From a bacterium (GTDB taxonomy: Bacteria > Moduliflexota > Moduliflexia > Moduliflexales > JAUQPW01): DNA of 64,000 bases. Both the position numbers and the translations under genes were made by a program. Within the stretch, counting starts at the first letter, position 1, and every line of letters starts with the position of its first letter. Under the pieces are notes generated by a model. The model searched no databases and was not told the origin of the DNA. It was given only the letters and a program-made list of their open reading frames with translations. Shown one piece after another: positions 11,388-56,950 of this stretch. The stretch is from contig JAUQPW010000001.1 in assembly GCA_030550175.1 (NCBI GenBank), forward strand, positions 10,898-74,897, given 5' to 3'.

Positions 11388-11870
11388 TTTAAATAATCAG
11401 GAATCGATTTTCCCCTCTTACATAAAAAAACTGACCTCTACAGGTCTATCAACGAATATAAAGTAAAGTCTCCCCCTCCATGCAAGCAAGGGAGACAAAG
11501 AAATTTGTTGACAAAAATTCTATCAGCCAACTAAAGTCAGTTTATACTTCCAAGATCACCATTACAATAACCGAATAAAGTAAATACTATACTTTTGCCG
11601 TTTTTAACTCTTAATCCCTGAAGGACTAAGAAGAACTATGAAAAGCATGAGAGTATAGGAGTTTGGGAGTATGGGAGGGTTTAAATCTATACGCCCTTAT
11701 CTTCCTGATTCCATACTCTTCGTGGACAAACCAAATCCACAGTTTAGAAAAAATGCGAAGGTATAGGAACTATACCGATAACTAAAAAAGAAGTCCTTAA
11801 AAGTAACGGGAACTTATAGAGCCAAAAAGGCTGGAGTTCTCGGTTTATTTGATAGGGCAAAACTTCTATT

Positions 11871-19141: not shown

Positions 19142-19194
19142 CTATTGACCTTATTTATCCAGGAAGGACTATCTCTGAGACACAGGAACTTGGG

Positions 19195-19250
19195 GGACGC
19201 AGGGAAATATCTCCACATCTCCGCGTCTCCCTATCTCCGTGTCTCAATAG
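19195..19250. repeat. Short repeat (atctccacatctccgcgtctccctatctcc) bounded by the inverted repeat gagacac/gtgtctc; a near-copy lies inside the sucB linker
   Basis: Compare 23158-23225 atctccacctctccgcgtctcc[gcgtctccgcatctccgcgtc]cctctatctcc. Confidence 0.5.
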
Positions 19251-22166: not shown

Positions 22167-23474
22167 TTAATAGTCCAGCTCCATGGTTTCTAAGTTTCGG
22201 GTAAACGCCTGCAGAAATTGCGCCGCAGTACTTCCATCCACCACGCGATAATCATAGGATAAAGAAGCGTACATCATCCAACGGATGCCGATCATATCTT
22301 CAATTACCACAGGCCGCTTCTTAACTGCACCAATTCCTAAAATCGCAATCTGGGGAGGTTGAATAAGGGGAGTATCTACTACAACCCCGAAAGCCCCGGA
22401 ATTGCTAACGGTAAAGGTTCCTCCCTGGAGTTCTTCAGGCTCGAGTTTTCTAGTTTGAGCTCGATAAATCAGATCCTCAATGGCTTTGGACATTCCCAAT
22501 AAATTTAAGCCTTGAGCCTCTTTAATAATAGGTACAACGACCTTATCTTCCAGAGGTACTGTAAAACCAATATGGATAAATTCCTTTAAAGCAACCGTCC
22601 CATCCTCTATAAGACCGTTTAAAGTAGGAAATTGCTTGAGGGCCTTAACCGTGGCCACCAGGATAAAAGGTAGAAATACCCACTCAGACGACCTTATGAC
22701 CCTCTCTCCCTGGGTTTTTTCCAGGTGCCGGACGATCCGCGTCATATCTACTTCTATCAAAGCGGTTGCATGGGGTACGAGCTGGGGGCCTAAGACCCGG
22801 AGACGTGGGATCGCAGAGATACTAGGTTGCCTGAACATTATTTCCCTTTCCTTACCTTGTGGTTTCTGCACTTCCTCTTCCAGAACTTGAGAGGGAGGAG
22901 GAATCGGCTCGGGTTTCGTTTCTTGAATCCTTTTTTTCGTTTTCAGGTCTGCCAGAATATCCTGCTTCATGATCCTACCACTCGGGCCGCTTCCCTGTTT
23001 CTGCTCAATTTCTTCCAGAGGAATCCCTTCCTTTTCGGCAATAGCCCGGGCCAGGGGAGAAATACGGGGACGTGGGGACGTAGGGACGCCGGGATGCGGG
23101 GGTACCCTTTCGGCCTCCCTATCTTCCTGTCTTTGCGCCTCCATTTCCCCCCGTCCCTCCATCTCCACCTCTCCGCGTCTCCGCGTCTCCGCATCTCCGC
23201 GTCCCTCTATCTCCACCTCCCCCCGTCCCTCCTCTACCTCTGTTTCAATCGAGGCGACTTCTGCCCCCACAGGGACCGTCTCTCCCTCGGCAAACAAGAT
23301 TCGACTGAGTTTTCCTGTGGCCGGAGCCGGCACTTCCGCATTTACTTTATCCGTACTCAGGACCAGAAGGACTTCATCCTTTTTTACAAAATCTCCTTCC
23401 TTTTTGTGCCACTCCAGAATCGTCCCTTCGACTACACTTTCTCCCAATTGGGGTATTGTAACGCTGACTTTCAT
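22167..23474 (-). CDS. sucB: Dihydrolipoamide acyltransferase E2 (2-oxoglutarate dehydrogenase complex), with an unusual E/R/G repeat linker
   Basis: N-terminal lipoyl domain (LSTDKVNAEVPAPATG, lipoyl-Lys). E3-binding domain (SPLARAIAEKEGIPLEEI). Catalytic domain with DYRVVDG (DHR..DG-type). The linker EVEIEGRGDAETRRRGEVEMEGRGEME is encoded by 8-bp tandem repeats. Confidence 0.85.
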   Translation of the reverse strand: MKVSVTIPQLGESVVEGTILEWHKKEGDFVKKDEVLLVLSTDKVNAEVPAPATGKLSRILFAEGETVPVGAEVASIETEVEEGRGEVEIEGRGDAETRRRGEVEMEGRGEMEAQRQEDREAERVPPHPGVPTSPRPRISPLARAIAEKEGIPLEEIEQKQGSGPSGRIMKQDILADLKTKKRIQETKPEPIPPPSQVLEEEVQKPQGKEREIMFRQPSISAIPRLRVLGPQLVPHATALIEVDMTRIVRHLEKTQGERVIRSSEWVFLPFILVATVKALKQFPTLNGLIEDGTVALKEFIHIGFTVPLEDKVVVPIIKEAQGLNLLGMSKAIEDLIYRAQTRKLEPEELQGGTFTVSNSGAFGVVVDTPLIQPPQIAILGIGAVKKRPVVIEDMIGIRWMMYASLSYDYRVVDGSTAAQFLQAFTRNLETMELDY

Positions 23475-23550: not shown

Positions 23551-26500
23551 CTATCCTTTAAGGGCCGTTTCAATAATTTGTCTTTGTTCCTCCTGATGAA
23601 TCCTTAGAGAGCCTGTTGCAGGGCTGGCACTTTCTGGACGGCCCACATAGATGGGTTCTGCATCTCTGAGTTTAGGGAAGAAGGATAAATCTCTCCGGAG
23701 TAATTTACGCAGGCGCGGACTTATATAACCCCAGGCACCCATGTTTTGAGGCTCTTCCTGTACCCAGAAAAGCTCTTGCAGATTGGGATACGTTCGTAAG
23801 AGTTCTTGAAGCCGGGCTTCATGGAAAGGATAGAGTTGCTCCAGACGTAATAGGGCTATGTGACGGATCTGACGTTTTTCCCGCTCTTGCAAGAGCTCAT
23901 AATAAATTTTGCCACTACACAGAATAACTCGAGTTATCGGGTCTTTAGAATTCAATAGGGTATCATCCAGAATTTCCTGAAAATGACCTTTTATCATCTC
24001 CTCAAGGGTTGAAACTGCCCGTGGATGTCGCAACAGACTCTTTGGGGTGGCTACAACGAGGGGTTTACAGGTTCCATCATAGACCTGACGACGCAGGAGG
24101 TGGAAATACTGGGCCGGGGTTGTACAATTGCAGACCTGAATATTATCCTCCGCGCAGAGTTGTAAAAATCGTTCAAGTCGAGCAGAGGAATGTTCCGGTC
24201 CCTGTCCTTCATAGCCATGGGGGAGTAACAGGACAATATCACTGGACTGACTCCATTTTTCTTCGGAACTGGCCAGAAATTGATCGATAATGACCTGAGC
24301 TCCGTTGGCAAAATCACCAAATTGGGCTTCCCAAAGCACCAGAGTGGAAGGATCCGCAACGCTATATCCGTATTCAAAACCGAGTACGGCTGCTTCAGAA
24401 AGAAGGCTATCAAACACATCAAACTTTGCCTGGGTAGGTTCAAGATGGTTCAAGGGTACATATTCCTGTTCGGTTTCATAGTCATAGAGGATGGCATGGC
24501 GCTGGCTAAAAGTACCCCGCGCGCTATCTTCTCCGCTCAACCTTACGTGGATTCCTTCGGTTAGCAAACTACCAAACGCCAGGGCTTCGGCAAAGGCCCA
24601 ATCTATAGGAGCCTGGGGATTGGTGAGGACGGCTCTCCGTTTTTCCAGGAACGAGCTAAGTTTGGGATGTAGCTTAAAATCTGAGGGAAGTGTGGTCATT
24701 CGTTCTGTAATCAGGATTAATCGATCTTTCTCGACGCCTGTATCTGAAAGTTCTTTAGGCTTTGGTTTTGCTTCGTCTATTAAAGGATTCTTGGATAGAC
24801 GAGGGGTCGTTGTGGGCTTGAGGGACTTGACCACTTCCAGGGCCTGTTCAAAGCGTTTGTGAAAATCTGCCGCCATTTCTTCAGCTTCCTCCGGCTTCAA
24901 TTCGTTATCTCGAAGTAACTGCTCGGTATAAATCTGCCGGACCGAGGGATGTTCCTGGATTTTCTTATAAAGCACGGGGTGGGTATAACTGGGTTCATCT
25001 ACTTCGCTGTGACCGTGGCGACGATAGCAAATAAGGTCAATAACTACATCGGTTGCAAACTTTTGCCGATAGGCAAATGCCAACTTTACCACATGGACTG
25101 TTGCTTCCGGATCGTCCCCGTTAACGTGGAATATGGGTACCTGCAACATCTTAGCAATGTCGGTTGCATAGAGCGTAGAACGAGCCTGCTCCGGAGAGGT
25201 GGTAAAACCTATTTGATTATTGATGACAATATGAACGGTACCCCCCGTACGATATCCTCGAAGCTGAGAGAGGTTAAGCGTTTCGGCCACAATGCCCTGA
25301 CCGGCAAAGGCAGCATCTCCATGGATTAAGACCGGGATGACCTTTTTCCTGTTGGTGTCGCCGATCCGCTCCTGTTTAGCCCGGGTCATTCCTTCTACGA
25401 CCGGATTGACGGCTTCCAGATGACTTGGATTTGAGGCCAACGAAAGGTTGATTTTCTTACCGGTGGGGGTTTCGTAGAATCCGGTAGCTCCCAGGTGATA
25501 CTTGACATCTCCAGAACCTTGAGGTGCGGTCGGGTCTATATATTCTTCGAACTCCGAAAAGATTTTTTCATAGGATTTACCGATAATATTGGCCAATACA
25601 TTTAATCGTCCCCGATGGGCCATCCCCATCACGACTTCCACCACTCCCTGTTCTGTGGCTTCGTCTAATAAGGCATCGAGCATAGGAATCAGGGTCTCAG
25701 CCCCTTCGAGGGAAAAGCGCTTATAGCCCACATATCGGGTATGGAGGAATTTCTCAAAGGCCTCGGCGGCATTCAATCTTAAGAGGATTCGGCGCTTGGC
25801 TTCACGGGAAAGTTGGGTTTTATTACGGCAACTCTCCATCCGCTCCTGAAGCCATAATTTTTGCTCCGGGTTTTGGATATTTCTATACTCTACACCGATT
25901 TTCCCACAGTAAGTTTCCCGCAAGGTATCCAAAATATCCCGCAGGGTAGCAACCGACTGGCCTCCCAATCCTCCCGTAATAAACTTTCGATCAAGATCCC
26001 AAATGGTCAATCCATACTGGGCCGGATCCAACTCAGGATGATAGTGAGGTTCATAACCTAAAGGATTGAGATCTGCAAGTAAATGCCCTCGGACCCGATA
26101 AGCATTGATAAGCTGTAACACCCGGGCCTGTTTTTCTATAGCTTCAAGGCTACGGGTTAAATCCAGGAGCTCTTTATTCTCATCCCGTTCCCAGTGGACA
26201 GGTTCATGGGGTAGCTTAAGATCCGTAAAGATTTGCTCATAGAATCCATCTTCTCCCTGGAGCAATTGATGAATTCGAGCCAGGTAGGAACCCGATTCGG
26301 CCCCTTGAATGATCCGGTGGTCATAGGTGCTGGTTAGGGTCATTACTTTACTGACCCCCAATTGAGAGAGGGTTTCCTCGGACATCCCTTGATACTCTGC
26401 CGGATAATCAATCGCACCCGTTGCGATAATGGCTCCTTGTCCCGGCATAAGCCTTGGGACCGAAGCTACCGTACCTATCATTCCAGGATTGGTTAAACTA

Positions 26501-27219
26501 ATAGTCGTGTCCTGAAAATCCTGGAGTGTCAACTTACCCGAGCGAGCCCGCTGAACCACATCGTTATACGCCTTCAGAAATTCAAGGAAGTTCAGTTTAT
26601 GAGCGTTCTTGATATTAGGTACCAGTAAAACCCTGGAGCCATCTTTTTGCTCAACATCTATTGCCAGCCCCAGATTGACCTCGGTCCTCTGAACCTTATG
26701 GGGTTCTCCGTTTAAGACCATAAAGGCCGAGTTCATATTAGGGTAATCCTTCAGGGCTTTAACCATCGCCCAGGCAATAATATGGGTATAAGAAGCCTTC
26801 CCCTGCCCCATCAAACTTAGGTGATGATTGATGATCCGTCTATTTTCTTCCAGTACCTTAACCGGTATAACACGCACAGAAGTAGCCGTCGGCAGGGTTA
26901 AACTGGCCTCCATATTCTCTGCAATCTTTGCCATAACCCCGCGAAGGGCCTTGATTTCTCCCGTAGGTAACGGACGATGGGCTGTGGATAGTTCTTCTTT
27001 TTCCGGCTTCCAGCTTTTAACCTCCGGTCTTTTGCCCTCTCCAGGGGCTCCTCCATTACCTGCCTGAAAATCCCGTTCATAACCCGCAAAAAACCGCCGC
27101 CAACTCTCACTTACCGTTGAAGGGTCCTTCAAGTACTGCTCATAAAGATCCTGGACAAAGTCGGAGTTAAATCCAAACTGCACTATTTTCAAGTCCTTAT
27201 CCGACATTTTCTCTTTCAT
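23551..27219 (-). CDS. sucA: 2-oxoglutarate dehydrogenase E1 component of the OdhA/Kgd type (N-terminal E2-like succinyltransferase domain fused to E1o)
   Basis: 1222 aa, against ~930 for classical SucA. The N-terminal ~350 aa contain the E2 catalytic signature LTSTYDHRIIQGAESGSYL. The remainder is E1o (ThDP-binding GDAAFAGQG region, transketolase-like C-terminus). Sits immediately upstream of the E2 gene. Confidence 0.85.
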   Translation of the reverse strand: MKEKMSDKDLKIVQFGFNSDFVQDLYEQYLKDPSTVSESWRRFFAGYERDFQAGNGGAPGEGKRPEVKSWKPEKEELSTAHRPLPTGEIKALRGVMAKIAENMEASLTLPTATSVRVIPVKVLEENRRIINHHLSLMGQGKASYTHIIAWAMVKALKDYPNMNSAFMVLNGEPHKVQRTEVNLGLAIDVEQKDGSRVLLVPNIKNAHKLNFLEFLKAYNDVVQRARSGKLTLQDFQDTTISLTNPGMIGTVASVPRLMPGQGAIIATGAIDYPAEYQGMSEETLSQLGVSKVMTLTSTYDHRIIQGAESGSYLARIHQLLQGEDGFYEQIFTDLKLPHEPVHWERDENKELLDLTRSLEAIEKQARVLQLINAYRVRGHLLADLNPLGYEPHYHPELDPAQYGLTIWDLDRKFITGGLGGQSVATLRDILDTLRETYCGKIGVEYRNIQNPEQKLWLQERMESCRNKTQLSREAKRRILLRLNAAEAFEKFLHTRYVGYKRFSLEGAETLIPMLDALLDEATEQGVVEVVMGMAHRGRLNVLANIIGKSYEKIFSEFEEYIDPTAPQGSGDVKYHLGATGFYETPTGKKINLSLASNPSHLEAVNPVVEGMTRAKQERIGDTNRKKVIPVLIHGDAAFAGQGIVAETLNLSQLRGYRTGGTVHIVINNQIGFTTSPEQARSTLYATDIAKMLQVPIFHVNGDDPEATVHVVKLAFAYRQKFATDVVIDLICYRRHGHSEVDEPSYTHPVLYKKIQEHPSVRQIYTEQLLRDNELKPEEAEEMAADFHKRFEQALEVVKSLKPTTTPRLSKNPLIDEAKPKPKELSDTGVEKDRLILITERMTTLPSDFKLHPKLSSFLEKRRAVLTNPQAPIDWAFAEALAFGSLLTEGIHVRLSGEDSARGTFSQRHAILYDYETEQEYVPLNHLEPTQAKFDVFDSLLSEAAVLGFEYGYSVADPSTLVLWEAQFGDFANGAQVIIDQFLASSEEKWSQSSDIVLLLPHGYEGQGPEHSSARLERFLQLCAEDNIQVCNCTTPAQYFHLLRRQVYDGTCKPLVVATPKSLLRHPRAVSTLEEMIKGHFQEILDDTLLNSKDPITRVILCSGKIYYELLQEREKRQIRHIALLRLEQLYPFHEARLQELLRTYPNLQELFWVQEEPQNMGAWGYISPRLRKLLRRDLSFFPKLRDAEPIYVGRPESASPATGSLRIHQEEQRQIIETALKG

Positions 27220-31397: not shown

Positions 31398-32324
31398 ATG
31401 GAAGCCATTAAAATCAGCCATCTTACAAAGACCTTTGGGGACTTACGAGCGGTTGACGACCTTACTCTTAGTGTATCTCAAGGAGAGATCTTCGGACTCG
31501 TGGGCCCGGACGGGGCCGGGAAGACCACAACCCTGCGGCTCCTCACGGCGATTCTGAATCCTACTTCAGGAGATGCCTGGATAATGAACAAACATATTGT
31601 TCGGGAAGCAGAAGCTCTTAAGGAAGAGATCGGTTACCTGAGCCAACGCTCTGGACTCTACCCGGACCTGACAGTAATGGAAAATATCCATTTCTACGCA
31701 GATATCTATGGCGTACCGCGCAGGAGCCGAGATCCAAAGATTGATGAATTACTCTCTTTCAGTAATTTGACCCCTTTCAAAAATCGCCTGGCAGGAAATT
31801 TATCAGGTGGGATGAAGCAAAAACTTGGCCTGGTTTGTGCGCTGATCCATACTCCAAAGGTACTCTTCCTGGATGAGCCGACCAACGGTGTGGATCCCAT
31901 TTCACGCAGGGACTTCTGGCGCATCCTGTATCAACTACTCCGTGAGAAAGTTACCATCTTTATTTCCACCGCTTATCTCGATGAAGCCGAGCGCTGCAAT
32001 CGGGTGGGTCTCATCCATAAAGGCAGACTTCTTGCCTATGGAACTCCCCTGGAGGTGAAGAAGTTGATGCAGGGAACCATCCTCGAGGTTTGCCCATCAG
32101 AGCCACGTAAAGCTACAACCCTCTTGCGCCAACGGTTTGGAGCCGGCCTGGTAAGCCTTTTCGGCGATCGTATTCACGTTGTAACCCAAGAACCAGACCG
32201 GACCATGGTTCAGGTGAAAGGAGTCCTCACCGGAGCCGGCCTTAAAGTCTTCGATATCCGGTCTATCGAACCGACGCTTGAGGATGTGTTTATCTCGGTC
32301 CTCGCTAGGGAAAAAGGACCATGA
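31398..32324 (+). CDS. ABC transporter ATP-binding protein (ABC-2 subfamily)
   Basis: Walker A GPDGAGKTT, signature LSGGMKQKL, Walker B LFLDEPT. Confidence 0.9.
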   Translation: MEAIKISHLTKTFGDLRAVDDLTLSVSQGEIFGLVGPDGAGKTTTLRLLTAILNPTSGDAWIMNKHIVREAEALKEEIGYLSQRSGLYPDLTVMENIHFYADIYGVPRRSRDPKIDELLSFSNLTPFKNRLAGNLSGGMKQKLGLVCALIHTPKVLFLDEPTNGVDPISRRDFWRILYQLLREKVTIFISTAYLDEAERCNRVGLIHKGRLLAYGTPLEVKKLMQGTILEVCPSEPRKATTLLRQRFGAGLVSLFGDRIHVVTQEPDRTMVQVKGVLTGAGLKVFDIRSIEPTLEDVFISVLAREKGP

Positions 32325-35961: not shown

Positions 35962-38754
35962 ATGAAAAATCCTGTTACGCCAACTACGGATCCCGTCCAT
36001 GATGTTCTGCGTTATGAACGTCAACCTCTGGATGCGATCTTCGCACCGCGGAATGTTGCTGTAATCGGTGCGACCGAAAAGACTGGCAGTGTCGGACGTA
36101 CCGTTTTGTGGAACCTCATCCATAATCCCTTTGGTGGAGCCGTTTTTCCTGTCAATCCGAACCGACATAGTGTATTGGGGATCAAAGCCTATCCCCATAT
36201 TGGAGCGGTACCCGATCCGGTGGACCTTGCTGTTATTATCACACCGGCACCTACGGTCCCTGGGATCATAGGAGAGTGTGTCGATGCCGGTGTAAAAGGA
36301 GCGATTATCATCTCCGCCGGTTTCAAGGAGTGTGGGCCGGAAGGGGCTGAGTTAGAGCAACAAATCCTTGAGCAGGCACGTCGCGGGAAGATACGCATTA
36401 TCGGACCCAATTGCCTGGGTGTGATGAACCCGCTTACCGGTCTTAACGCCACCTTCGCCAGGACTATGGCACGACCCGGGAATGTCGGCTTTATCAGCCA
36501 GAGTGGTGCGCTGTGTACAGCTATCCTGGATTGGAGTTTACAAGAGAATGTAGGATTCAGTGCCTTCATCTCCATTGGCTCTATGCTTGACGTCAGTTGG
36601 GGGGATCTCATTTATTACCTAGGTGACAATCCCCACACCCACAGTATCGTCATTTATATGGAATCTATAGGGGATGCCCGGTCGTTCCTCTCTGCTGCTC
36701 GGGAAGTAGCCCTCACTAAACCCATCATTGTCATCAAGGCCGGTCGTACAGAGGCTGCTGCGAAGGCTGCAGCTTCCCATACTGGGGCTCTCACCGGTAG
36801 CTATGAAGTCCTGGAGGCAGCTTTTCGTCGTTGCGGTGTGCTTCACGTCAATAATATTGCCTATCTTTTCTATATGGCCGAAGTACTCGCCAAGCAACCA
36901 CGTCCACAAGGTCCACGGTTAACGATTCTCACCAACGCCGGTGGTCCCGGCGTGCTTGCCACCGATGCCCTGATCGCAGAGGGGGGAGAACTGGCGGAAT
37001 TATCCCCGGAAACCCTGGAATCCCTTAACCGGCTTCTCCCGGTTTACTGGAGCCATAACAACCCTATCGATATTTTAGGAGATGCCGACCCTCAGCGATA
37101 TGCAAAAGCCCTGGAGATTGCCGCGAAGGATCCGAATAGTGATGGTCTATTGGTCATTTTGACTCCCCAGGCGATGACCGATCCGACCCAAACGGCAGAG
37201 CAGTTGAAAGCTTACGCCCGGAATAGCCACAAACCTATCCTCGCCAGCTGGATGGGTGGGGCCGATGTTGCAGCGGGAACAGCGATTCTTAACCAGGCTG
37301 GTATTCCTACTTTTCCTTACCCGGACACAGCTGCCCGGGTGTTCAATTACATGTGGCGGTATAGCTATAACCTGCGGGGTCTATACGAAACTCCGGTCCT
37401 CCCGGCAGGGGTAGGGGGATATGAGAGTATCAACACCTCTACTCCCACACCCCCACACTCCCATACTCCTGTATCCCCATTCCAGCGGGCCGAGGAGATT
37501 ATTCAAACTGCCCGCAAGGCCGGTCGAACCCTTCTCACCGAGCCCGAATCCAAGCAGCTCCTCGCCGCCTATGGCATCCCAACGGTGGAAACCCGGGTTG
37601 CTACCCATGAAACCGAGGCGGTCAGACTTGCAGAGGAAATCGGCTACCCAGTTGTCCTCAAGCTCTTTTCTGAAACCATTACCCACAAGACCGACGTGGG
37701 CGGTGTTCAGTTGAATCTGATCAACGCCGAGGCTGTCATACAGGCTTATCGTGCCATCGAATCTTCCGTGCGTGAAAAGCAAGGGGCCAAACATTTCTTA
37801 GGTGTGACCGTCCAGCCCATGATCAAATGGGAAGGTTATGAAATCATCCTCGGCAGTAGTGTTGATCCTCAGTTCGGTCCGGTATTGCTTTTCGGCTCCG
37901 GAGGTCAATGGGTGGAAGTATTTAAAGACCGCGCCCTGGCACTCCCACCCCTTAATACCGTCCTGGCACGGCGAATGATGGAGCAGACCCGTATCTATAC
38001 CGCCCTCAAAGGTATCCGAGGACGTAAATCAGTGGATCTGGCTGCCCTTGAACAACTCCTGGTCCAATTCAGCCAACTGGTCGTCGAACAACTTTGGATC
38101 AAGGAAATTGATGTTAACCCCTTACTGGTCTCTCCTGAACGATTAATTGCGCTGGATGCGCGGGTGATTTTGCACGAACCCCATATCCCGGAAGATAAAC
38201 TACCCAGGCCGGCCATCCGCCCGTACCCAACCCAATATGTATCACCCTGGACCTTGAAGGATGGTACTCCCATCATTATCCGCCCGATCCGCCCTGAAGA
38301 CGAGCCCCTGATGATCAACTTCCACAAAACCCTCTCCGAACGCAGCGTATATTTCCGCTACTTTTATCCCATGCAGTTGAGTCAGCGTATTGCCCATGAA
38401 CGGTTGACACATATGTGCTTCATCGACTACGACCGCGAAATGGCCCTCGTCGCAGACTATACGGATCCTAACACCGGTACCCACGAGATTATAGCCGTTG
38501 GCCGTTTAAGAAAATTGCACGGTACCCCGGAAGCCGAGTTTGCCCTCCTCGTCAGCGATCGATATCAACATCAGGGATTGGGTACCGAGTTGTTACGCAG
38601 ACTCCTGCAGGTCGGTCGTGACGAAAAACTTCAGCGTATCGTCGCCGATATTCTTCCCGAGAATCGAGATATGCAACGGGTCTGTGAGAAACTAGGTTTC
38701 CGCCTCCGCTGGGTAGCCACTGAAGGGGTAATAAAGGCAGAAATCGATCTCTGA
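35962..38754 (+). CDS. pat: Pat-like protein lysine acetyltransferase: ADP-forming acyl-CoA synthetase (alpha+beta) fused to a C-terminal GNAT domain
   Basis: N-terminal CoA-binding/succinyl-CoA-synthetase-like domains ([17 protein letters not shown]-grasp). C-terminal GNAT ([14 protein letters not shown]...[17 protein letters not shown]). A linker [14 protein letters not shown] is encoded by the cacactcccatac repeat. Confidence 0.8.
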
Positions 38755-44505: not shown

Positions 44506-45135
44506 GTGAGGAACATGATAATTCAGGATGTGGGACAGCAACATTTGACCAGGATTCAGCCAACAACGGAAGGTATCCGTACCTGGAGAACCTATCTCAA
44601 GGAGTATCAATTTAATAAAAAATATCCGGACGATGCCTATGTGTGGCTTACCTGTATTCTGGCATTGGAGGCCGTTGGGGTCGGCAACTTTGGGGTTGGG
44701 TGTATTTTGATTAATAATCAAGGTGACATATTAGCTCAAGGGCATAACAAAATATTCCATCCTTACTTTCGGAGTGATCGACATGCTGAAATGGTTGTCA
44801 TGGATGACTTTGAGGATGCCCATCCAGAACCTAGCGGGTTGGGTGCTTACTCTTTATATACCTCTCTGGAGCCCTGCCCCATGTGCCTGGTACGATTGAG
44901 TACCTCGGGGATAAACAAAATACTATTTGCTGCCCCGGATGTGTCAGGGGGTATGGTTCATCGAATGAATAACTTACCACCCTTCTGGTTTGAGTTGGCC
45001 CAAGGGAAAATATTTAGCCAGGCACAGTGCTCGCCGGATTTGGTTCATGCGGCTACGCAGATCCTACTTCTTAATTTAAATGAACTAACAACTGAAGTCA
45101 AAGTCAGACAGCGTAAAGTATCCGTATCAATTTAG
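44506..45135 (+). CDS. Cytidine/deoxycytidylate-deaminase-fold (CDA) nucleoside/nucleotide deaminase
   Basis: Zinc-binding H-A-E (RHAEMVV) and PCxxC (LEPCPMCLVRL) motifs. Confidence 0.7.
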   Translation: MRNMIIQDVGQQHLTRIQPTTEGIRTWRTYLKEYQFNKKYPDDAYVWLTCILALEAVGVGNFGVGCILINNQGDILAQGHNKIFHPYFRSDRHAEMVVMDDFEDAHPEPSGLGAYSLYTSLEPCPMCLVRLSTSGINKILFAAPDVSGGMVHRMNNLPPFWFELAQGKIFSQAQCSPDLVHAATQILLLNLNELTTEVKVRQRKVSVSI

Positions 45136-45151
45136 TAGGTGGAAAAAGAAA

Positions 45152-45214
45152 CACCCCCCTGGCCTCCCCCCTCTAATTCCCCCGTATACGGGGGAGGGGG
45201 GGCCAGGGGGGTGT
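45152..45214. repeat. Perfect nested GC palindrome (possible REP-like element or terminator) downstream of the deaminase gene
   Basis: acacccccctggcc tcccccct ctaatt cccccgtatacggggg agggggg ggccaggggggtgt. No T-tract follows. Confidence 0.55.
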
Positions 45215-45315
45215 GTTCAGACAGAAAAGGTGACACCTACTAAATTGTTCCAGTTACCAGCGTAAAATGAGGTAAAACGATTCTATTTGGTATCGAAAAT
45301 GGAGGTCATATAACC

Positions 45316-46896: not shown

Positions 46897-47889
46897 ATGG
46901 TTCGATTTAAATATCTTATGGGGCTTATAAGCTTAATTTTAGCTGTTCAGTTTTTACTTCCTTATCAGGTCGAGGGTGGGGATAAAAAATTAAAAGTAGC
47001 CATGATTCTTCCCGGTCGAATCAACGATGTATCCTGGAACCAGGCAGCCTATGAAGGACTCAAGCAGGCTGAAAAGGAGTTGGGGGTTGAGATAGCCTAT
47101 ACCGAGAATGTCAGTGTGGCCGATGTGGAAAGGGTTTTGAGAGAATATGCTACGGCGGGATACGATCTCATTTTAGCCCACAGTTTCAACTATGGAGATG
47201 CGGTATTTAAAGTCGCTCAGGACTTTCCAAAAATTAAATTTGGATGGGCTACCGGTTTTAAGTCGGCTCCCAACGTAGCTTTCTATGACTGGCCCGCCCA
47301 TGAAGTAGGATACCTGGTAGGAATGCTGGCAGCTTCCATGAGCAAAACCGGAAAAATCGGTGCTCTGGGGGGATTCGATGTGCCGGATGTTGTCCGGGCC
47401 ATAGAGGGTTTTAAATTGGGAGCTAAAGCGGTAAATCCTGAGATTAAGGTTTTTACAACCTACATTGGGGATTGGGAGGATGCTGCAAAAGCTAAAGAAG
47501 CTGCTCTGGCCCATATCGAAAACGGAGCAGATGTCGTTTATATTAATGGGGATGGAATTAGTTACGGAGTTATCGAAGCTGCCAAGGAAAAGGGGGTATA
47601 TGCCATCGGTGGTATTGCAGATCAGTATTCTCTCGCTCCGGAAACCGTTCTCAGCAGTACCGTACTGAATGTAGGATTTACAATCAAAAAAATGATCGAG
47701 GACGTTCAGGCCGGTAAATTTAAAGAAAGTTATCTGTATAGCTTAAAAGAAGGTGGAGTGGATATTGCACCTTATCACGAACTGGAAAAAGTGATCCCCC
47801 AGGAAGTAAAAGATAAAATTGCCAAAGCTAAAAAGGATATTCTGGAGGGAAAGCTCCAGGTGCCGGATATTGTTAAACCAACGGAGTAA
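46897..47889 (+). CDS. BMP-family ABC transporter substrate-binding lipoprotein (PnrA/TmpC-like nucleoside-binding)
   Basis: Signal/lipobox region, then KVAMILPGRINDVSWNQAAYEGL, typical of the Bmp/Med family. Followed by its ATPase and two permeases. Confidence 0.85.
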   Translation: MVRFKYLMGLISLILAVQFLLPYQVEGGDKKLKVAMILPGRINDVSWNQAAYEGLKQAEKELGVEIAYTENVSVADVERVLREYATAGYDLILAHSFNYGDAVFKVAQDFPKIKFGWATGFKSAPNVAFYDWPAHEVGYLVGMLAASMSKTGKIGALGGFDVPDVVRAIEGFKLGAKAVNPEIKVFTTYIGDWEDAAKAKEAALAHIENGADVVYINGDGISYGVIEAAKEKGVYAIGGIADQYSLAPETVLSSTVLNVGFTIKKMIEDVQAGKFKESYLYSLKEGGVDIAPYHELEKVIPQEVKDKIAKAKKDILEGKLQVPDIVKPTE

Positions 47890-48066
47890 GTATGGGAGTG
47901 GGAAGTATGGAAGTGGAAAAGTATGGAAGTATGGGAGTGGGGAAGTGGAGACTCGTCCACACTCTCACACCCCCATACTTCCATACCCCTATACCCACTC
48001 CCATACCCCCACACTCCCATACTTCCATACCCCCATACTTCTCCACTCTCATACCTCCATACTTTC
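47890..48066. repeat. Long imperfect hairpin built from tandem gtatggRagtgg units and their complement (ccacactcccatac...)
   Basis: 47890-47950 holds four direct units. 47960-48066 is approximately their reverse complement. The motif acccccacactcccatact also occurs in frame inside the pat linker (37455-37475). Confidence 0.65.
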
Positions 48067-49617
48067 ATTCTTTTAAGGATAGATAAAATCACTAAACGGT
48101 TCCCAGGGGTTCTTGCCAATGATCAAATTTCATTGGAAATCGAGGCAGGGGAGGTGCATGCGTTGTTAGGTCAGAATGGGGCCGGTAAGACTACGTTGAT
48201 GAATATTCTCTATGGTCTTTATCAACCGGACTCCGGTCAAATTTATTTTAAAGATCGAAAGGTTAAAATAAGCTCTCCTCGAAAAGCTATTGAATTGGGA
48301 ATTGGAATGGTTCACCAGCATTTCATGCTAATTCCCGACTTTACAGTTGCCGAGAATATCCTGATCGGCTTTAAGCAGAGGGGCCCCTTTTTAAATCTTA
48401 AAAGAGTCGAACAGGCTGTAGCCGAACTTTCTCACCGTTATAGACTTCAAGTAGACCCGACGGCCAGAGTTCAGCACTTATCTGTCGGAAGTCGACAAAG
48501 GGTTGAGATTATCAAAGCCCTTTATCGCGGAGCCGAGCTTTTGATTCTCGATGAGCCTACATCGGTTCTAACTCCCCAGGAAACCCATGAACTTTTCCAG
48601 ATCTTGCGGACCCTCACAGCTCAAGGGAAGTCCGTTATTTTCATCACGCACAAATTGAACGAGGTAATGCAGGTATGTGATCGGGCGACAGTTTTAAGAA
48701 ATGGAAGGAAAGTGGGAACGGTTAAAATCCAGCAGGAAGGACCTGAAAAAGAAGTAATTAAAGAGAATCTGGCTCGAATGATGATCGGTAAAGAGGTTTC
48801 CCTGGAAACCGAAAGAACAGCACTTAAAAAGAAGCCTGTTCAGTTCGGTAAGGAGGTTTTAAAAGTCGAGGAGTTGGAAGCCGTAAACGATCAAAATCGG
48901 CTCGTTTTAAAAAAAATTTCCTTTTCTGTCCGGGCGGGTGAAATTTTGGGGATTGCCGGTGTAGCCGGCAATGGTCAGAGCGAACTGGTAGAAGTCCTGG
49001 CCGGGTTACGTAAAGCCGTGGGTGGAAGGGTCTTCCTGAACGGTCAAGAGGTTTTGAATGAGCCCCCACGTAAGCTTTTGGAGGGAGGGATTGCCCACAT
49101 TCCGGAGGATAGGTTAAGAATGGGTCTTGTACTGGATTTACCTTTACCGGAAAATGCCATCCTGGGTTCTTTTCATAAAGCTCCTTTTTCCTTCAAAATA
49201 GGAAACGCTCTTCCTGGGCCTCGTTGGTTAAATTATACCGAGATTCGAAAGTTTACAGAACGCCTTATCATTTCCTATGATATCAAAACCCCCCATCCAG
49301 AAGCCACCATGCGAATGCTTTCAGGGGGAAATCAGCAAAAATTCATAGTAGGTCGCGAACTCACCCGGTCTCCGAAAGTACTGCTGACCGTTCAACCCAC
49401 CATGGGTCTCGATATAAAAGCTACCGAGTTTGTTCATCAGAAATTCTTAGAACAACGAGAAAATCAGGTGGCCATTCTCTTAATTTCCACTGAACTGGAT
49501 GAAATATTAGCCCTCAGTGATCGCGTGGCCGTCCTCTATGAAGGGCAAATTGTCGGACTCCTTCCTGCCGATCAGGCTGATAGAGAAATCCTGGGACGCT
49601 GGATGAGTGGATTATGA
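47923..49617 (+). CDS. ABC transporter ATP-binding protein with duplicated NBDs (nucleoside/sugar importer type); 5' end buried in the repeat, true start uncertain
   Basis: Two NBDs (GQNGAGKTT and second-domain signatures). The conserved N-terminus begins about LRIDKITKRFPGV (~48073). There is no ATG/GTG/TTG in frame between 47923 and 48100, so initiation would be inside the repeat. Confidence 0.8.
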   Translation: MEVWEWGSGDSSTLSHPHTSIPLYPLPYPHTPILPYPHTSPLSYLHTFILLRIDKITKRFPGVLANDQISLEIEAGEVHALLGQNGAGKTTLMNILYGLYQPDSGQIYFKDRKVKISSPRKAIELGIGMVHQHFMLIPDFTVAENILIGFKQRGPFLNLKRVEQAVAELSHRYRLQVDPTARVQHLSVGSRQRVEIIKALYRGAELLILDEPTSVLTPQETHELFQILRTLTAQGKSVIFITHKLNEVMQVCDRATVLRNGRKVGTVKIQQEGPEKEVIKENLARMMIGKEVSLETERTALKKKPVQFGKEVLKVEELEAVNDQNRLVLKKISFSVRAGEILGIAGVAGNGQSELVEVLAGLRKAVGGRVFLNGQEVLNEPPRKLLEGGIAHIPEDRLRMGLVLDLPLPENAILGSFHKAPFSFKIGNALPGPRWLNYTEIRKFTERLIISYDIKTPHPEATMRMLSGGNQQKFIVGRELTRSPKVLLTVQPTMGLDIKATEFVHQKFLEQRENQVAILLISTELDEILALSDRVAVLYEGQIVGLLPADQADREILGRWMSGL

Positions 49618-50759: not shown

Positions 50760-51682
50760 CCCAGGCTTTTATTGTCGGAGTCCTGGCATCGGGAGTACGG
50801 CTGGCCGTTCCTATTCTACTGGCAGCTTTGGGCGAAATCTTTTCAGAAAGGGCCGGCATCCTCAATATTGGGATCGAAGGGGAGATGCTGGTAGGAGCTC
50901 TGGCCGGATTCCTGGGAACTTTCTATACCCATCATGTGGGATTAGGGTTCCTGATCGGAATGGCGGCAAGTGGAGTTTTTAGCCTGATTATGGGCTTTAT
51001 AACTATTACCTTAAAAAGAGATCAGGTCATTACCGGAATTATCCTTAATATATTGGCCCTTGGATTAACGAGTTTCGTCTACAGGGCCTTATTCGGTACC
51101 TCCCGAACGCCTCCCAGTATAAAGCCGTTAACTCCCCTTAAAGTCCCGATCTTAGGGGATATCCCTTATATAGGAACTATCCTTTTTCATCAGAATCTTT
51201 TGGTTTACCTGGCCTTTTTATTGGTTCCTGTGAGTGCCTGGATTCTTTTTAAGACCCAATTTGGATTAAATTTAAGAGCCGTTGGTGAACATCCTCGGGC
51301 CGCAGATACATTGGGAGTCCCTGTGGAGAGAATGAGATATATCGCAGTGATTCTGGGAGGGATCTTCTCCGGTTTGGGGGGTTGTTTTTTGACCCTGGCC
51401 CAGCTAAATCGATTTACCGACAATATAACTGCCGGACGTGGGTTTATTGCCATTGCAGCGGTTATATTTGGAAAATGGAATCCCTACGGTGTCGCCCTTG
51501 CAACACTTCTTTTCGGAATCGCCGATGGACTTCAATTAAGACTTCAAGCCCTGGGTACCAAGCTTCCATATCAGTTCCTCTTGATGCTCCCGTATATCTT
51601 AACCATTGTAGCCTTGGTTGGAATCGTGGGAAAATCAAAACCCCCGGCAGCCCTAGCGGTTCCCTATCAAAAGGATAATTAA
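50720..51682 (+). CDS. ABC transporter permease (second permease); annotated ORF starts at TTG 50828 but the conserved N-terminus is encoded from ~50720 without a canonical start
   Basis: Upstream in frame: TDILTQAFIVGVLASGVRLAVPILLAALGEIF, the typical first TM of this permease family. A frame-2 stop sits at 50717-50719. Confidence 0.7.
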   Translation, partial: RTKNNGGKATDILTQAFIVGVLASGVRLAVPILLAALGEIFSERAGILNIGIEGEMLVGALAGFLGTFYTHHVGLGFLIGMAASGVFSLIMGFITITLKRDQVITGIILNILALGLTSFVYRALFGTSRTPPSIKPLTPLKVPILGDIPYIGTILFHQNLLVYLAFLLVPVSAWILFKTQFGLNLRAVGEHPRAADTLGVPVERMRYIAVILGGIFSGLGGCFLTLAQLNRFTDNITAGRGFIAIAAVIFGKWNPYGVALATLLFGIADGLQLRLQALGTKLPYQFLLMLPYILTIVALVGIVGKSKPPAALAVPYQKDN

Positions 51683-51762
51683 CCATCAGCCATCAACAAT
51701 TAACAATCAGCAATTAACAAATTTTTGTTTATTGCTCTTTGTTCATTGTTCCTTGAGTAAAG

Positions 51763-56886: not shown

Positions 56887-56950
56887 TGAGATTTATGGTT
56901 GATGGTGGTTAGATCGGATGAGATTTATGGTTGATGGTGGTTAGATCGGA
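56887..56950. repeat. Perfect 32-bp tandem duplication (tgagatttatggttgatggtggttagatcgga x2) within a 1.1-kb non-coding leader
   Basis: Copy 1 is 56887-56918 and copy 2 is 56919-56950, identical. Each contains a mini-ORF ATG GTT GAT GGT GGT TAG (MVDGG*). Confidence 0.8.

Follow-up and report, generated by a model that had tools for sequence, protein, structure and literature searches.

Introduction

Tandem arrays of short units have been described in several groups of bacteria. The G-rich heptamer repeats GGGAATC and GGGGA(C/T)T of Xanthomonas and Nostoc form convergent pairs near stop codons, are conserved in position and variable in length and sequence, are underrepresented in open reading frames (ORFs), are not linked to mobile elements, and have no known function (Rehm et al. 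2015, PMC4692102). The short tandemly repeated repetitive sequences (STRRs) of cyanobacteria have a tandem unit of 7 bp and can form hairpins in the spaces separating genes such as hupS and hupL; their function is likewise unknown, and an effect on transcript stability or translational coupling has been suggested (PMC2670836). Dozens of copies of paired, inverted octanucleotide repeats, including TCTCCGTS, are present in Geobacter metallireducens, where three to four tandem units of 8 to 9 nt lie on opposite strands at a variable distance from each other; these repeats are intergenic and have been annotated as putative binding sites of global regulators (PMC2700814). The present study concerns a pair of octamer arrays in a 64-kb stretch of bacterial DNA (referred to here as the window), which lies in frame within a gene for an E2 (sucB/DlaT-like) acyltransferase and encodes the linker between its lipoyl and E3-binding domains.

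The arrays were found to vary among relatives mostly in 24-nt steps, and members of the same family were found at gene ends and, occasionally, in the linkers of other proteins. We consider it probable that the E2 linker is encoded by a convergent octanucleotide array pair belonging to a lineage-wide family of 7- to 8-nt repeats, which varies by gain and loss of units within the constraint of the reading frame.

Two convergent octamer arrays encode the E2 linker

The E2 protein is composed of a lipoyl domain, a linker, an E3-binding domain, and an acyltransferase core (Pfam matches: Biotin_lipoyl, residues 5 to 76; E3_binding, residues 136 to 174; 2-oxoacid_dh, residues 232 to 432). The label sucB-type E2 is reasonable because the gene upstream encodes an OdhA/Kgd-type E1o, the partner in 2-oxoglutarate complexes. 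Between the Biotin_lipoyl and E3_binding domains the translation of the ORF includes EEGRGEVEIEGRGDAETRRRGEVEMEGRGEMEAQRQEDREAERVPPHPGVPTSPRPRIS, and the DNA that encodes this segment consists of two octamer arrays in opposite orientation, with a G-rich arm, about 35 nt of unique sequence, and a C-rich arm following each other on the coding strand (Table 1).

On the coding strand the G-rich arm is made up of the units GGGACGGG, GGAGGTGG, GGAGATNN, GGAGATGC, and GGAGACGC and encodes roughly residues 80 to 112 (EEGRGEVEIEGRGDAETRRRGEVEMEGRGEME), a peptide that an initial annotation of this DNA had already read correctly. The C-rich arm, with the coding-strand units TACCCCCG, CATCCCGG, CGTCCCTA, CGTCCCCA, and CGTCCCCG, is GGGGACGT-type on the plus strand and encodes about residues 124 to 138 (VPPHPGVPTSPRPR). 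Tandem Repeats Finder (TRF) reported a period of 8 nt at positions 23162 to 23203 (5.2 copies, 88% matches) and a 24-nt higher-order repeat over the G-rich arm (positions 23139 to 23232, 3.9 copies). The initial annotation had recognized one arm and had missed both the second, inverted array and the 24-nt periodicity. Its four tandem copies of tctccgcg at positions 23170 to 23201 were also not all exact: TCTCCGCG is present at 23170, 23178, and 23194, but the copy at 23186 is TCTCCGCA, which has one mismatch.

When three tandem copies of GGAGACGC are read through the three phases the product is GDAETRRR, and three copies of CGTCCCCA give RPHVPTSP. Both the unusual E/R/G part of the linker and its Pro-rich part are thus direct read-outs of the respective arms, and the linker peptide as a whole is a convergent pair of octamer arrays translated in three phases. 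Two independent assemblies made from other runs (L044 and L045) contain identical linker DNA, and the array is therefore not an assembly artefact. The swinging-arm position of the linker, between the lipoyl domain and the peripheral-subunit-binding domain, was set by the Pfam matches and its hydrophilic composition by translation; from these features we infer that it is flexible. An AlphaFold2 model built from a 7-sequence alignment had a mean pLDDT of 50.9, with even the lipoyl domain unconfident, and was uninformative on disorder of the linker.

A separate observation concerns the acyltransferase core, in which SYDYRVVDG at residue 408 replaces the catalytic DHRxxDG motif (His to Tyr). The same replacement was found in the homologous proteins P0002 to P0006, and P0007 keeps DHR. 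The adjacent OdhA/Kgd-like E1o keeps TYDHRIIQG, with DHR, at residue 300 within its fused E2-like domain. Judged by the motif, the separate E2 may be a catalytically dead lipoyl carrier or a scaffold.

TABLE 1 Positions of the arrays and associated genes in the 64-kb window
Feature	Positions	Strand	Basis
Intergenic array of G-rich octamers (ATGGGAGT-type); complementary arm weak	11647 to 11722	plus	sequence, TRF, scan
Convergent pair between the convergent genes nrdJ and Lactamase_B_3 (G-rich, 19176 to 19208; C-rich, 19209 to 19245)	19176 to 19245	unstranded	sequence, TRF, fold
E2 (sucB/DlaT-like) gene, 435 aa	22167 to 23474	minus	ORF list, translation, Pfam
C-rich arm of the E2 linker, CGTCCCCA-type	23062 to 23103 (coding, 23103 to 23062)	minus	TRF (23066 to 23088)
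Nonrepeat spacer, loop of the potential hairpin; encodes AQRQEDREAER	23104 to 23138	minus	sequence, fold
G-rich arm of the E2 linker, GGAGACGC-type, about 12 octamer units	23139 to 23235 (coding, 23235 to 23139)	minus	TRF, autocorrelation, pattern scan, translation
OdhA/Kgd-type E1o with fused E2-like catalytic domain, upstream of E2	23551 to 27219	minus	Pfam
In-frame convergent octamer arrays in 930-aa acetyl-CoA-synthetase/GNAT (Pat-like) gene	37405 to 37480	plus	sequence, Pfam
Large convergent pair (GGAAGTAT/GGGAGTNN, then complement)	47888 to 48073	plus	sequence, TRF, inverted repeats I1 to I11, fold, Pfam
AT-rich heptamer convergent arrays (AACAATC-type, then TTGTTCA)	51677 to 51755	plus	TRF, sequence, fold (z = -4.3)

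Variation of the linker arrays among relatives

Three E2 proteins with BLAST identities of 89, 85, and 83% (P0002, P0003, and P0004) are encoded at syntenic loci. A scan of genome contigs with the E2 protein recovered relatives only at 35% identity or less and no close genome. One E2 relative bears the submitter label Candidatus Limnocylindrales (Chloroflexota). Both arms were kept in all three orthologues. Compared with the window, P0003 and P0004 lacked 24 nt (8 residues) of the G-rich arm, P0002 lacked 24 nt (8 residues) of the C-rich arm, and all three lacked a further 6 nt. The tether is 46 to 58 residues long among relatives. When an indel in the Pat-like gene described below is included, three of the four indels were of 24 nt (8 residues) and one was of 6 nt. 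The initial annotation had predicted changes in steps of three units (24 bp), and these indels support its prediction, with the 6-nt indel as a departure from it. The reading frame was intact in six homologues aligned with the window E2 and in the two independent assemblies of the gene, and the linker peptide itself varied among orthologues.

A 58%-identical homologue (L052) had only decayed octamers in its linker, and a 52%-identical homologue (P0007, L055) had an ordinary Ala/Pro/Lys linker with no arrays. These results indicate that the arrays are old within the clade but not ancestral to the E2 family. Heptamer arrays were seen alongside octamer arrays in the window (positions 51677 to 51755) and in both of these more distant loci: a convergent pair, (GGGATGA)n followed by (TCATCCC)n, lies between the E1o and E2 genes of L052 (9818 to 9997), and a (GGTCCGT)n run lies inside the E1o ORF of L055 (971 to 1034).

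The array pair sits at a site in the ORF where almost any hydrophilic, flexible peptide would be tolerated, since only length, hydrophilicity, and flexibility would be needed there. The G-rich arm supplies an E/R/G/D polyampholyte and the C-rich arm a Pro/Ser/Thr/His stretch, giving a tether of about 55 residues. The arrays would change by replication slippage, and within the ORF only variants that keep the frame would survive, which would account both for the mostly 24-nt differences between orthologues and for the 24-nt higher-order periodicity. The initial annotation had suggested, among other possibilities, a slippage-prone short-unit repeat, present also in noncoding DNA, that was accommodated in frame in the linker, and this part of its proposal agrees with our results.

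Relationship between the linker and the nrdJ spacer

The initial annotation had also reported a near-copy of the linker repeat downstream of nrdJ, at positions 19213 to 19250. This second site is real, but it is slightly displaced, at positions 19209 to 19245. The bracketing sequences GAGACAC (19177 to 19183) and GTGTCTC (19239 to 19245) were found as described, and they form the base of a hairpin of about 70 nt (-43.7 kcal/mol, z = -4.8). Exact matches to ATCTCCACNTCTCCGCG were located at 19209 and 23161; with up to two mismatches the sequence was found at five places in the window versus 0.01 expected from shuffles.

A specific copying event between linker and spacer, which the initial annotation had entertained in either direction, was not supported. 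When arrays were simulated from the unit profile of this subtype, 31% of the trials produced such a shared 17-mer. Nor did the sucB arrays and the nrdJ spacer show concerted evolution beyond the window: extra within-genome k-mer sharing was detected there only, with no such excess in the genomes of relatives. Orthologous nrdJ spacers kept their arrays and differed in units and copy numbers. We conclude that the array in the nrdJ spacer is a family resemblance, based on the same unit subtype, and not a demonstrated copy.

Other arrays in the window

An autocorrelation scan identified seven period-8 regions in the window, compared to 0.0 in shuffles and to 0 to 3 regions for periods of 6, 7, 9, and 10 nt. 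The pattern GGRGAYNN repeated three times matched 16 times versus 0.34 expected. The motif thus extends well beyond the two places in which the initial annotation had seen it. Most arrays of the window sit at gene ends or between genes, and all five paired octamer loci are convergent, with the G-rich arm at the 5' end and the C-rich arm at the 3' end, an arrangement that reads the same on either strand. The units GGGGACGT, GGGAGTAT, and GGGGAAGT contain a G-tract with A after it; in GGAGACGC, the unit that dominates the linker, the tract is interrupted. A strict regular expression for GGG at period 8 was too stringent to be useful. The absence of stop codons in all six frames was considered as a special property of the units and discarded as not meaningful, because 46% of all 8-mers qualify. 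No Rfam match at gathering thresholds and no HIP1 site was found in the window.

A second in-frame case is provided by the Pat-like gene, in which the arrays lie between the Ligase_CoA_2 and ATP-grasp_5 domains identified with Pfam. Among 13 aligned homologues, only the close relative P0124 has the array, with an insertion exactly 8 residues (24 nt) longer than that of the window; P0123 (83% identity) is without it. The predicted fold of this pair was no stronger than that of shuffled sequence (z = -1.1). The Pat-like protein (positions 35962 to 38754, plus strand) had its closest homologues outside its own clade at about 75% identity, and most of those bearing an organism name were cyanobacterial (Nostoc and Microcoleus). 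For a putative Chloroflexota genome this identity is unusually high and may reflect either horizontal transfer or an uncertain taxonomy.

The array at positions 47888 to 48073 begins on the TAA stop codon of a gene for a Bmp substrate-binding protein, ends at the conserved start of an ABC ATPase, and is predicted to fold strongly (-84.9 kcal/mol, z = -7.1). The heptamer pair at 51677 to 51755 occupies an intergenic gap, overlaps the upstream stop codon, and has the same architecture as the octamer pairs. For the ABC ATPase (positions 47923 to 49617, plus strand), the only canonical start codon is inside the G-rich array, which would give the protein an array-encoded N-terminal extension of about 52 residues. 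Among its relatives, the database entries P0242 and P0243 lack part of the N terminus, and the extension present in P0244 is array-like. The start region is either a hot spot of misannotation or a third case of in-frame absorption.

Arrays can be present at a precise gene junction in one genome and absent in another. At position 32321 two ABC genes of the window overlap by 4 nt (ATGA), and three relatives carry octamer arrays of 100 to 150 nt at exactly this junction (L046, 1000 to 1230; L047, 860 to 1090; L050, 2870 to 3120). Two of the three are convergent pairs, and in the third a small palindrome is flanked by two G-rich arrays that are direct repeats in orientation. The arrays directly follow TGA, and the junction borders have AAAGG-type microhomology. 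This presence and absence shows that arrays are gained or lost at precise junctions; insertion, deletion, and growth in place fit the pattern alike. In L046 the gene call for the downstream ABC protein is extended by 47 residues through the array. Further arrays were seen in the flanks of the relatives, and at the sucB linker, the nrdJ spacer, and the ABC junction array positions were conserved between relatives while the units turned over.

Two other repeated structures were noted in the window. An intergenic, very stable nested hairpin at positions 45110 to 45267 (-82.7 kcal/mol, z = -7.8) has 24-nt outer inverted arms and flanking direct AGCGTAAA repeats, and it resembles a miniature inverted-repeat transposable element (MITE); its C-rich half comes first, the reverse of the order in the octamer arrays. 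A perfect tandem duplication of 32 nt (two copies of TGAGATTTATGGTTGATGGTGGTTAGATCGGA) at positions 56887 to 56950 sits in a 1.1-kb stretch without an ORF of at least 120 aa and without an Rfam match.

Arrays in metagenomes

Scanning metagenome contigs for four tandem copies of GGAGANNN yielded at least 120 loci, which differed greatly in GC content and represented many taxa. Some carry HIP1 sites, which identifies these as cyanobacterial. Of 98 arrays with full flanks among the matches listed, 26 had a complementary partner downstream and 1 had a partner upstream, a convergent bias of 26:1. Distances from the arrays to the ends of ORFs, which were crudely defined from stop to stop, were noisy and are suggestive only.

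Several metagenome arrays are in frame. They lie between the two domains of CoaBC, between the Hpt and dimerization domains of CheA, and between the domains of UvrA; others are within the activation domain of MetH, an ABC ATPase domain, and a PSD1 domain, and one is in a GNAT protein. The peptides encoded are of the same types (GDGETGRRG... and SPSPLLPFSPS...). Because several unrelated genes carry in-frame arrays, tolerance of these repeats in linkers and loops is recurrent. The GNAT acetyltransferase is from an unrelated metagenome (L156, 202 to 855, plus strand), and its in-frame convergent pair encodes RRGDAETRRRGDTEMRR.... As both are built from the DNA unit GGAGACGC, this peptide is nearly identical to the E2 linker.

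Alternative explanations

The two linker arms constitute the third-longest inverted repeat in the window (I3; arms of 47 nt at positions 23053 to 23099 and 23189 to 23235, 72% complementary), and it is possible that the hairpin which they could form functions in the E2 mRNA by pausing ribosomes after the lipoyl domain, by setting the stability of the mRNA, or as a processing site, with the peptide as a by-product. The RNA fold of the window arms was predicted at -83.9 kcal/mol (z = -3.6), and strong long-range pairing of the arms was predicted in all four close genomes (z = -4.65 for L046, -7.48 for L047, and -7.49 for L050, the latter two at about -70 kcal/mol) and was absent in the distant homologues L052 and L055. 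Intergenic members of the family also fold strongly. However, complementarity follows automatically from a convergent repeat pair, nearly all pairs of the consensus hairpin are invariant among the four orthologues, and their consensus fold contained no useful covariation (double changes in 2 of 39 pairs; covariation term of +1.94, which is unfavorable). L047 and L050 differ at two positions, each of which alters a single pairing without compensation. The in-frame pair in the Pat-like gene that folds like shuffled sequence and the directly oriented arrays at one ABC junction do not fit a functional hairpin either, which we therefore regard as unlikely. Hairpin potential is a built-in property of the convergent pair, and its use in E2 mRNA is hypothetical. 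A role of the arrays as G-quadruplex elements in DNA or RNA is more doubtful still. Motif inspection revealed five tracts of at least three G's with 4- to 5-nt loops (G3+N4-5 x5) on the plus strand at positions 23066 to 23100, and quadruplex formation in vitro is known for the related repeats GGGGAYT and GGGAATC (PMC4692102). In contrast, units of the G-rich arm are mostly GGAGA, with GG runs only, a duplex or hairpin competes with the quadruplex in convergent pairs, and the AT-rich heptamer arrays share the architecture without any G-tracts.

Another alternative is insertion of a small mobile element, either a MITE or selfish DNA like the Rickettsia palindromic elements (RPEs), into the linker and other sites; a small mobile element in the linker was also among the suggestions of the initial annotation. 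Filled and empty states of identical sites are found among relatives, both at the ABC-ABC junction with its microhomology and in the Pat-like linker, but these are equally well explained by deletion or de novo expansion. The copies have no common consensus, conserved termini, terminal inverted repeat, or clear target site duplication; their units differ by locus (GGAGACGC, GGAAGTAT, GGGATGA, and AACAATC); and the arrays stay at orthologous positions while units turn over. Related repeats are not associated with mobile elements (Rehm et al., PMC4692102), and a mobile origin seems quite improbable here. We consider it very unlikely that selection on the protein for a charged, 8-residue peptide repeat in the swinging arm came first, with the DNA periodicity as a secondary effect. 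The 24-nt, 8-residue higher-order repeat (MEGRGEVE-like) and the frame kept in all orthologues agree with such selection, yet the basic period of the DNA is 8 nt and not 3 or 24, units of this family are also found in noncoding spacers, and the second arm, the reverse complement of the first, codes for a peptide unlike that of the first. Identical DNA units also yield identical peptides in unrelated proteins from other taxa (RRGDAETRRRG in the GNAT protein of L156), and the pattern expected from peptide selection, synonymous divergence in the arrays as high as elsewhere with a conserved peptide, was not seen, as the peptide varies. Almost no credence is due to chance similarity or to an artefact of sequencing or assembly: apart from the fact that repeats are in general hard to assemble, nothing speaks for it, and it is contradicted by the shuffle controls, the identical independent assemblies, and the conservation of arrays in four related genomes. 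Contingency simple sequence repeats (SSRs) have a unit that is not divisible by 3, lie in or upstream of a surface or virulence gene, and produce frame-shifted on/off variants. A phase-variable repeat of this kind was rejected, as E2 is a housekeeping gene of the tricarboxylic acid cycle, all homologues and assemblies are in frame, and the indels are of 24 or 6 nt. Repetitive extragenic palindromes and bacterial interspersed mosaic elements (REP/BIME) are imperfect palindromes of 20 to 40 bp with a conserved GTAG/CGTC head and are linked to the RAYT transposase; they were rejected on architecture, with no search made for a RAYT transposase, because the arms here are tandem arrays of 30 to 120 nt without a conserved head.

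Several points weigh against an explanation of the linker as a convergent array pair of a lineage-wide family that changes by slippage. Slippage itself is inferred; no length variants within a population were found, and the linker was identical in the two other assemblies (L044 and L045). Of the four indels, one departs from 24 nt and is of 6 nt. The G-tracts of the GGAGACGC units are interrupted, which sets these units apart from the canonical GGGNATC class. Invasion of an older linker by an array and origin of the array in place are both compatible with the data. The genome is apparently that of a member of the Chloroflexota (Candidatus Limnocylindrales), a placement that comes from the submitter's label for one relative, and a genome-wide distribution of the arrays is an extrapolation from the 64 kb of this genome in which they were counted.

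Implications

The E2 linker offers a concrete route from noncoding, slippage-prone repeat DNA to a working segment of a central metabolic enzyme. Because an 8-nt unit lets selection filter slippage to 24-nt steps, the length of the tether varies in quanta of 8 residues among close relatives. Similar cases occur in a second protein of this genome and in unrelated proteins from other phyla, and array-derived linkers and loops may be a general and little-noticed source of linker and loop variation. There is also a consequence for annotation, in that array-filled gene junctions appear to cause miscalled starts, as in the ABC ATPase and the truncated calls in its relatives. The finding itself is moderately interesting; the generality of array-derived linkers and the convergent bias, known from the Xanthomonas heptamers and here extended to octamers across metagenomes, are stronger leads than the locus.

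The origin of the convergent bias invites speculation. In the convergent arrangement the G-rich strands run 5' to 3' toward the center from both sides. Such an order would be expected if repeat-adding, slippage-type synthesis had extended the two 3' ends of a break in the DNA with G-rich 7- to 8-mers before these ends were joined, by analogy to head-to-head telomere fusion. The arrays would then be scars left by a bacterial activity of end processing or repair that has yet to be described. This idea is a long shot. If it were true, the E2 tether and the in-frame arrays of CoaBC, CheA, UvrA, MetH, and ABC proteins would be protein segments born from scars. As a milder corollary, G-rich arrays of short units would be a source of new interdomain linkers and loops in general and across phyla. 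An equally speculative explanation of the orientation is selection against an order in which a C-rich RNA arm that loads Rho is exposed first.

Comparison with known repeat systems

A tolerant helix of the RNase P RNA gene is another site of STRRs, a placement to which that of an array in a tolerant protein linker is analogous. The arrays of the window resemble STRRs in their short tandem units, their capacity to form hairpins, and their intergenic members. They differ in having an octameric unit, in belonging to a noncyanobacterial genome (no HIP1 in 64 kb, and a 2-oxoglutarate dehydrogenase is present), and in including a copy that is translated.

RPEs are elements of 100 to 150 bp with a family consensus and are considered mobile; Ogata and coworkers reportedly described them in 2000 as selfish DNA located in frame in protein genes. 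The arrays share with RPEs the in-frame presence of hairpin-capable, repeated DNA in housekeeping genes at structurally permissive sites, but they have no consensus beyond the type of unit and evolve by gain and loss of units. Compared with ordinary E2 linkers, the array-encoded linker has the same position and a similar length (about 36 to 60 residues), is hydrophilic, and contains Pro in the half encoded by the C-rich arm, whereas its E/R/G polyampholyte half and the 8-nt periodicity of its DNA set it apart from the usual Ala/Pro/charged composition. The Geobacter repeats are likewise tandem octamers paired on opposite strands, but no in-frame use like that found here has been described for them (PMC2700814).

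The similarity to the heptamers of Xanthomonas and Nostoc is extensive. In both cases short G-rich units are arranged head to tail (a G-tract with A after it is present in some of the units here and interrupted in the dominant linker unit), many copies are dispersed and frequently paired in convergent orientation, the same loci are occupied in relatives with variable length and sequence, and there is no tie to surface or phase-variable genes. Placement at stop codons is also shared by the intergenic members (47888, 51677, and the ABC junctions); the sucB copy, in contrast, lies within its ORF. The arrays differ from the heptamers in their 8-nt unit, in their many interrupted G-tracts (GGAGA), in a host that, from the label of a relative, is apparently a member of the Chloroflexota, and in the in-frame position of the sucB copy and at least one other, which supply interdomain linkers. 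Overall, the arrays have nearly all of the defining features of the class of G-rich, 7- to 9-nt SSR/STRR-like repeats and differ from it in their 8-nt unit, interrupted G-tracts, and translated position.

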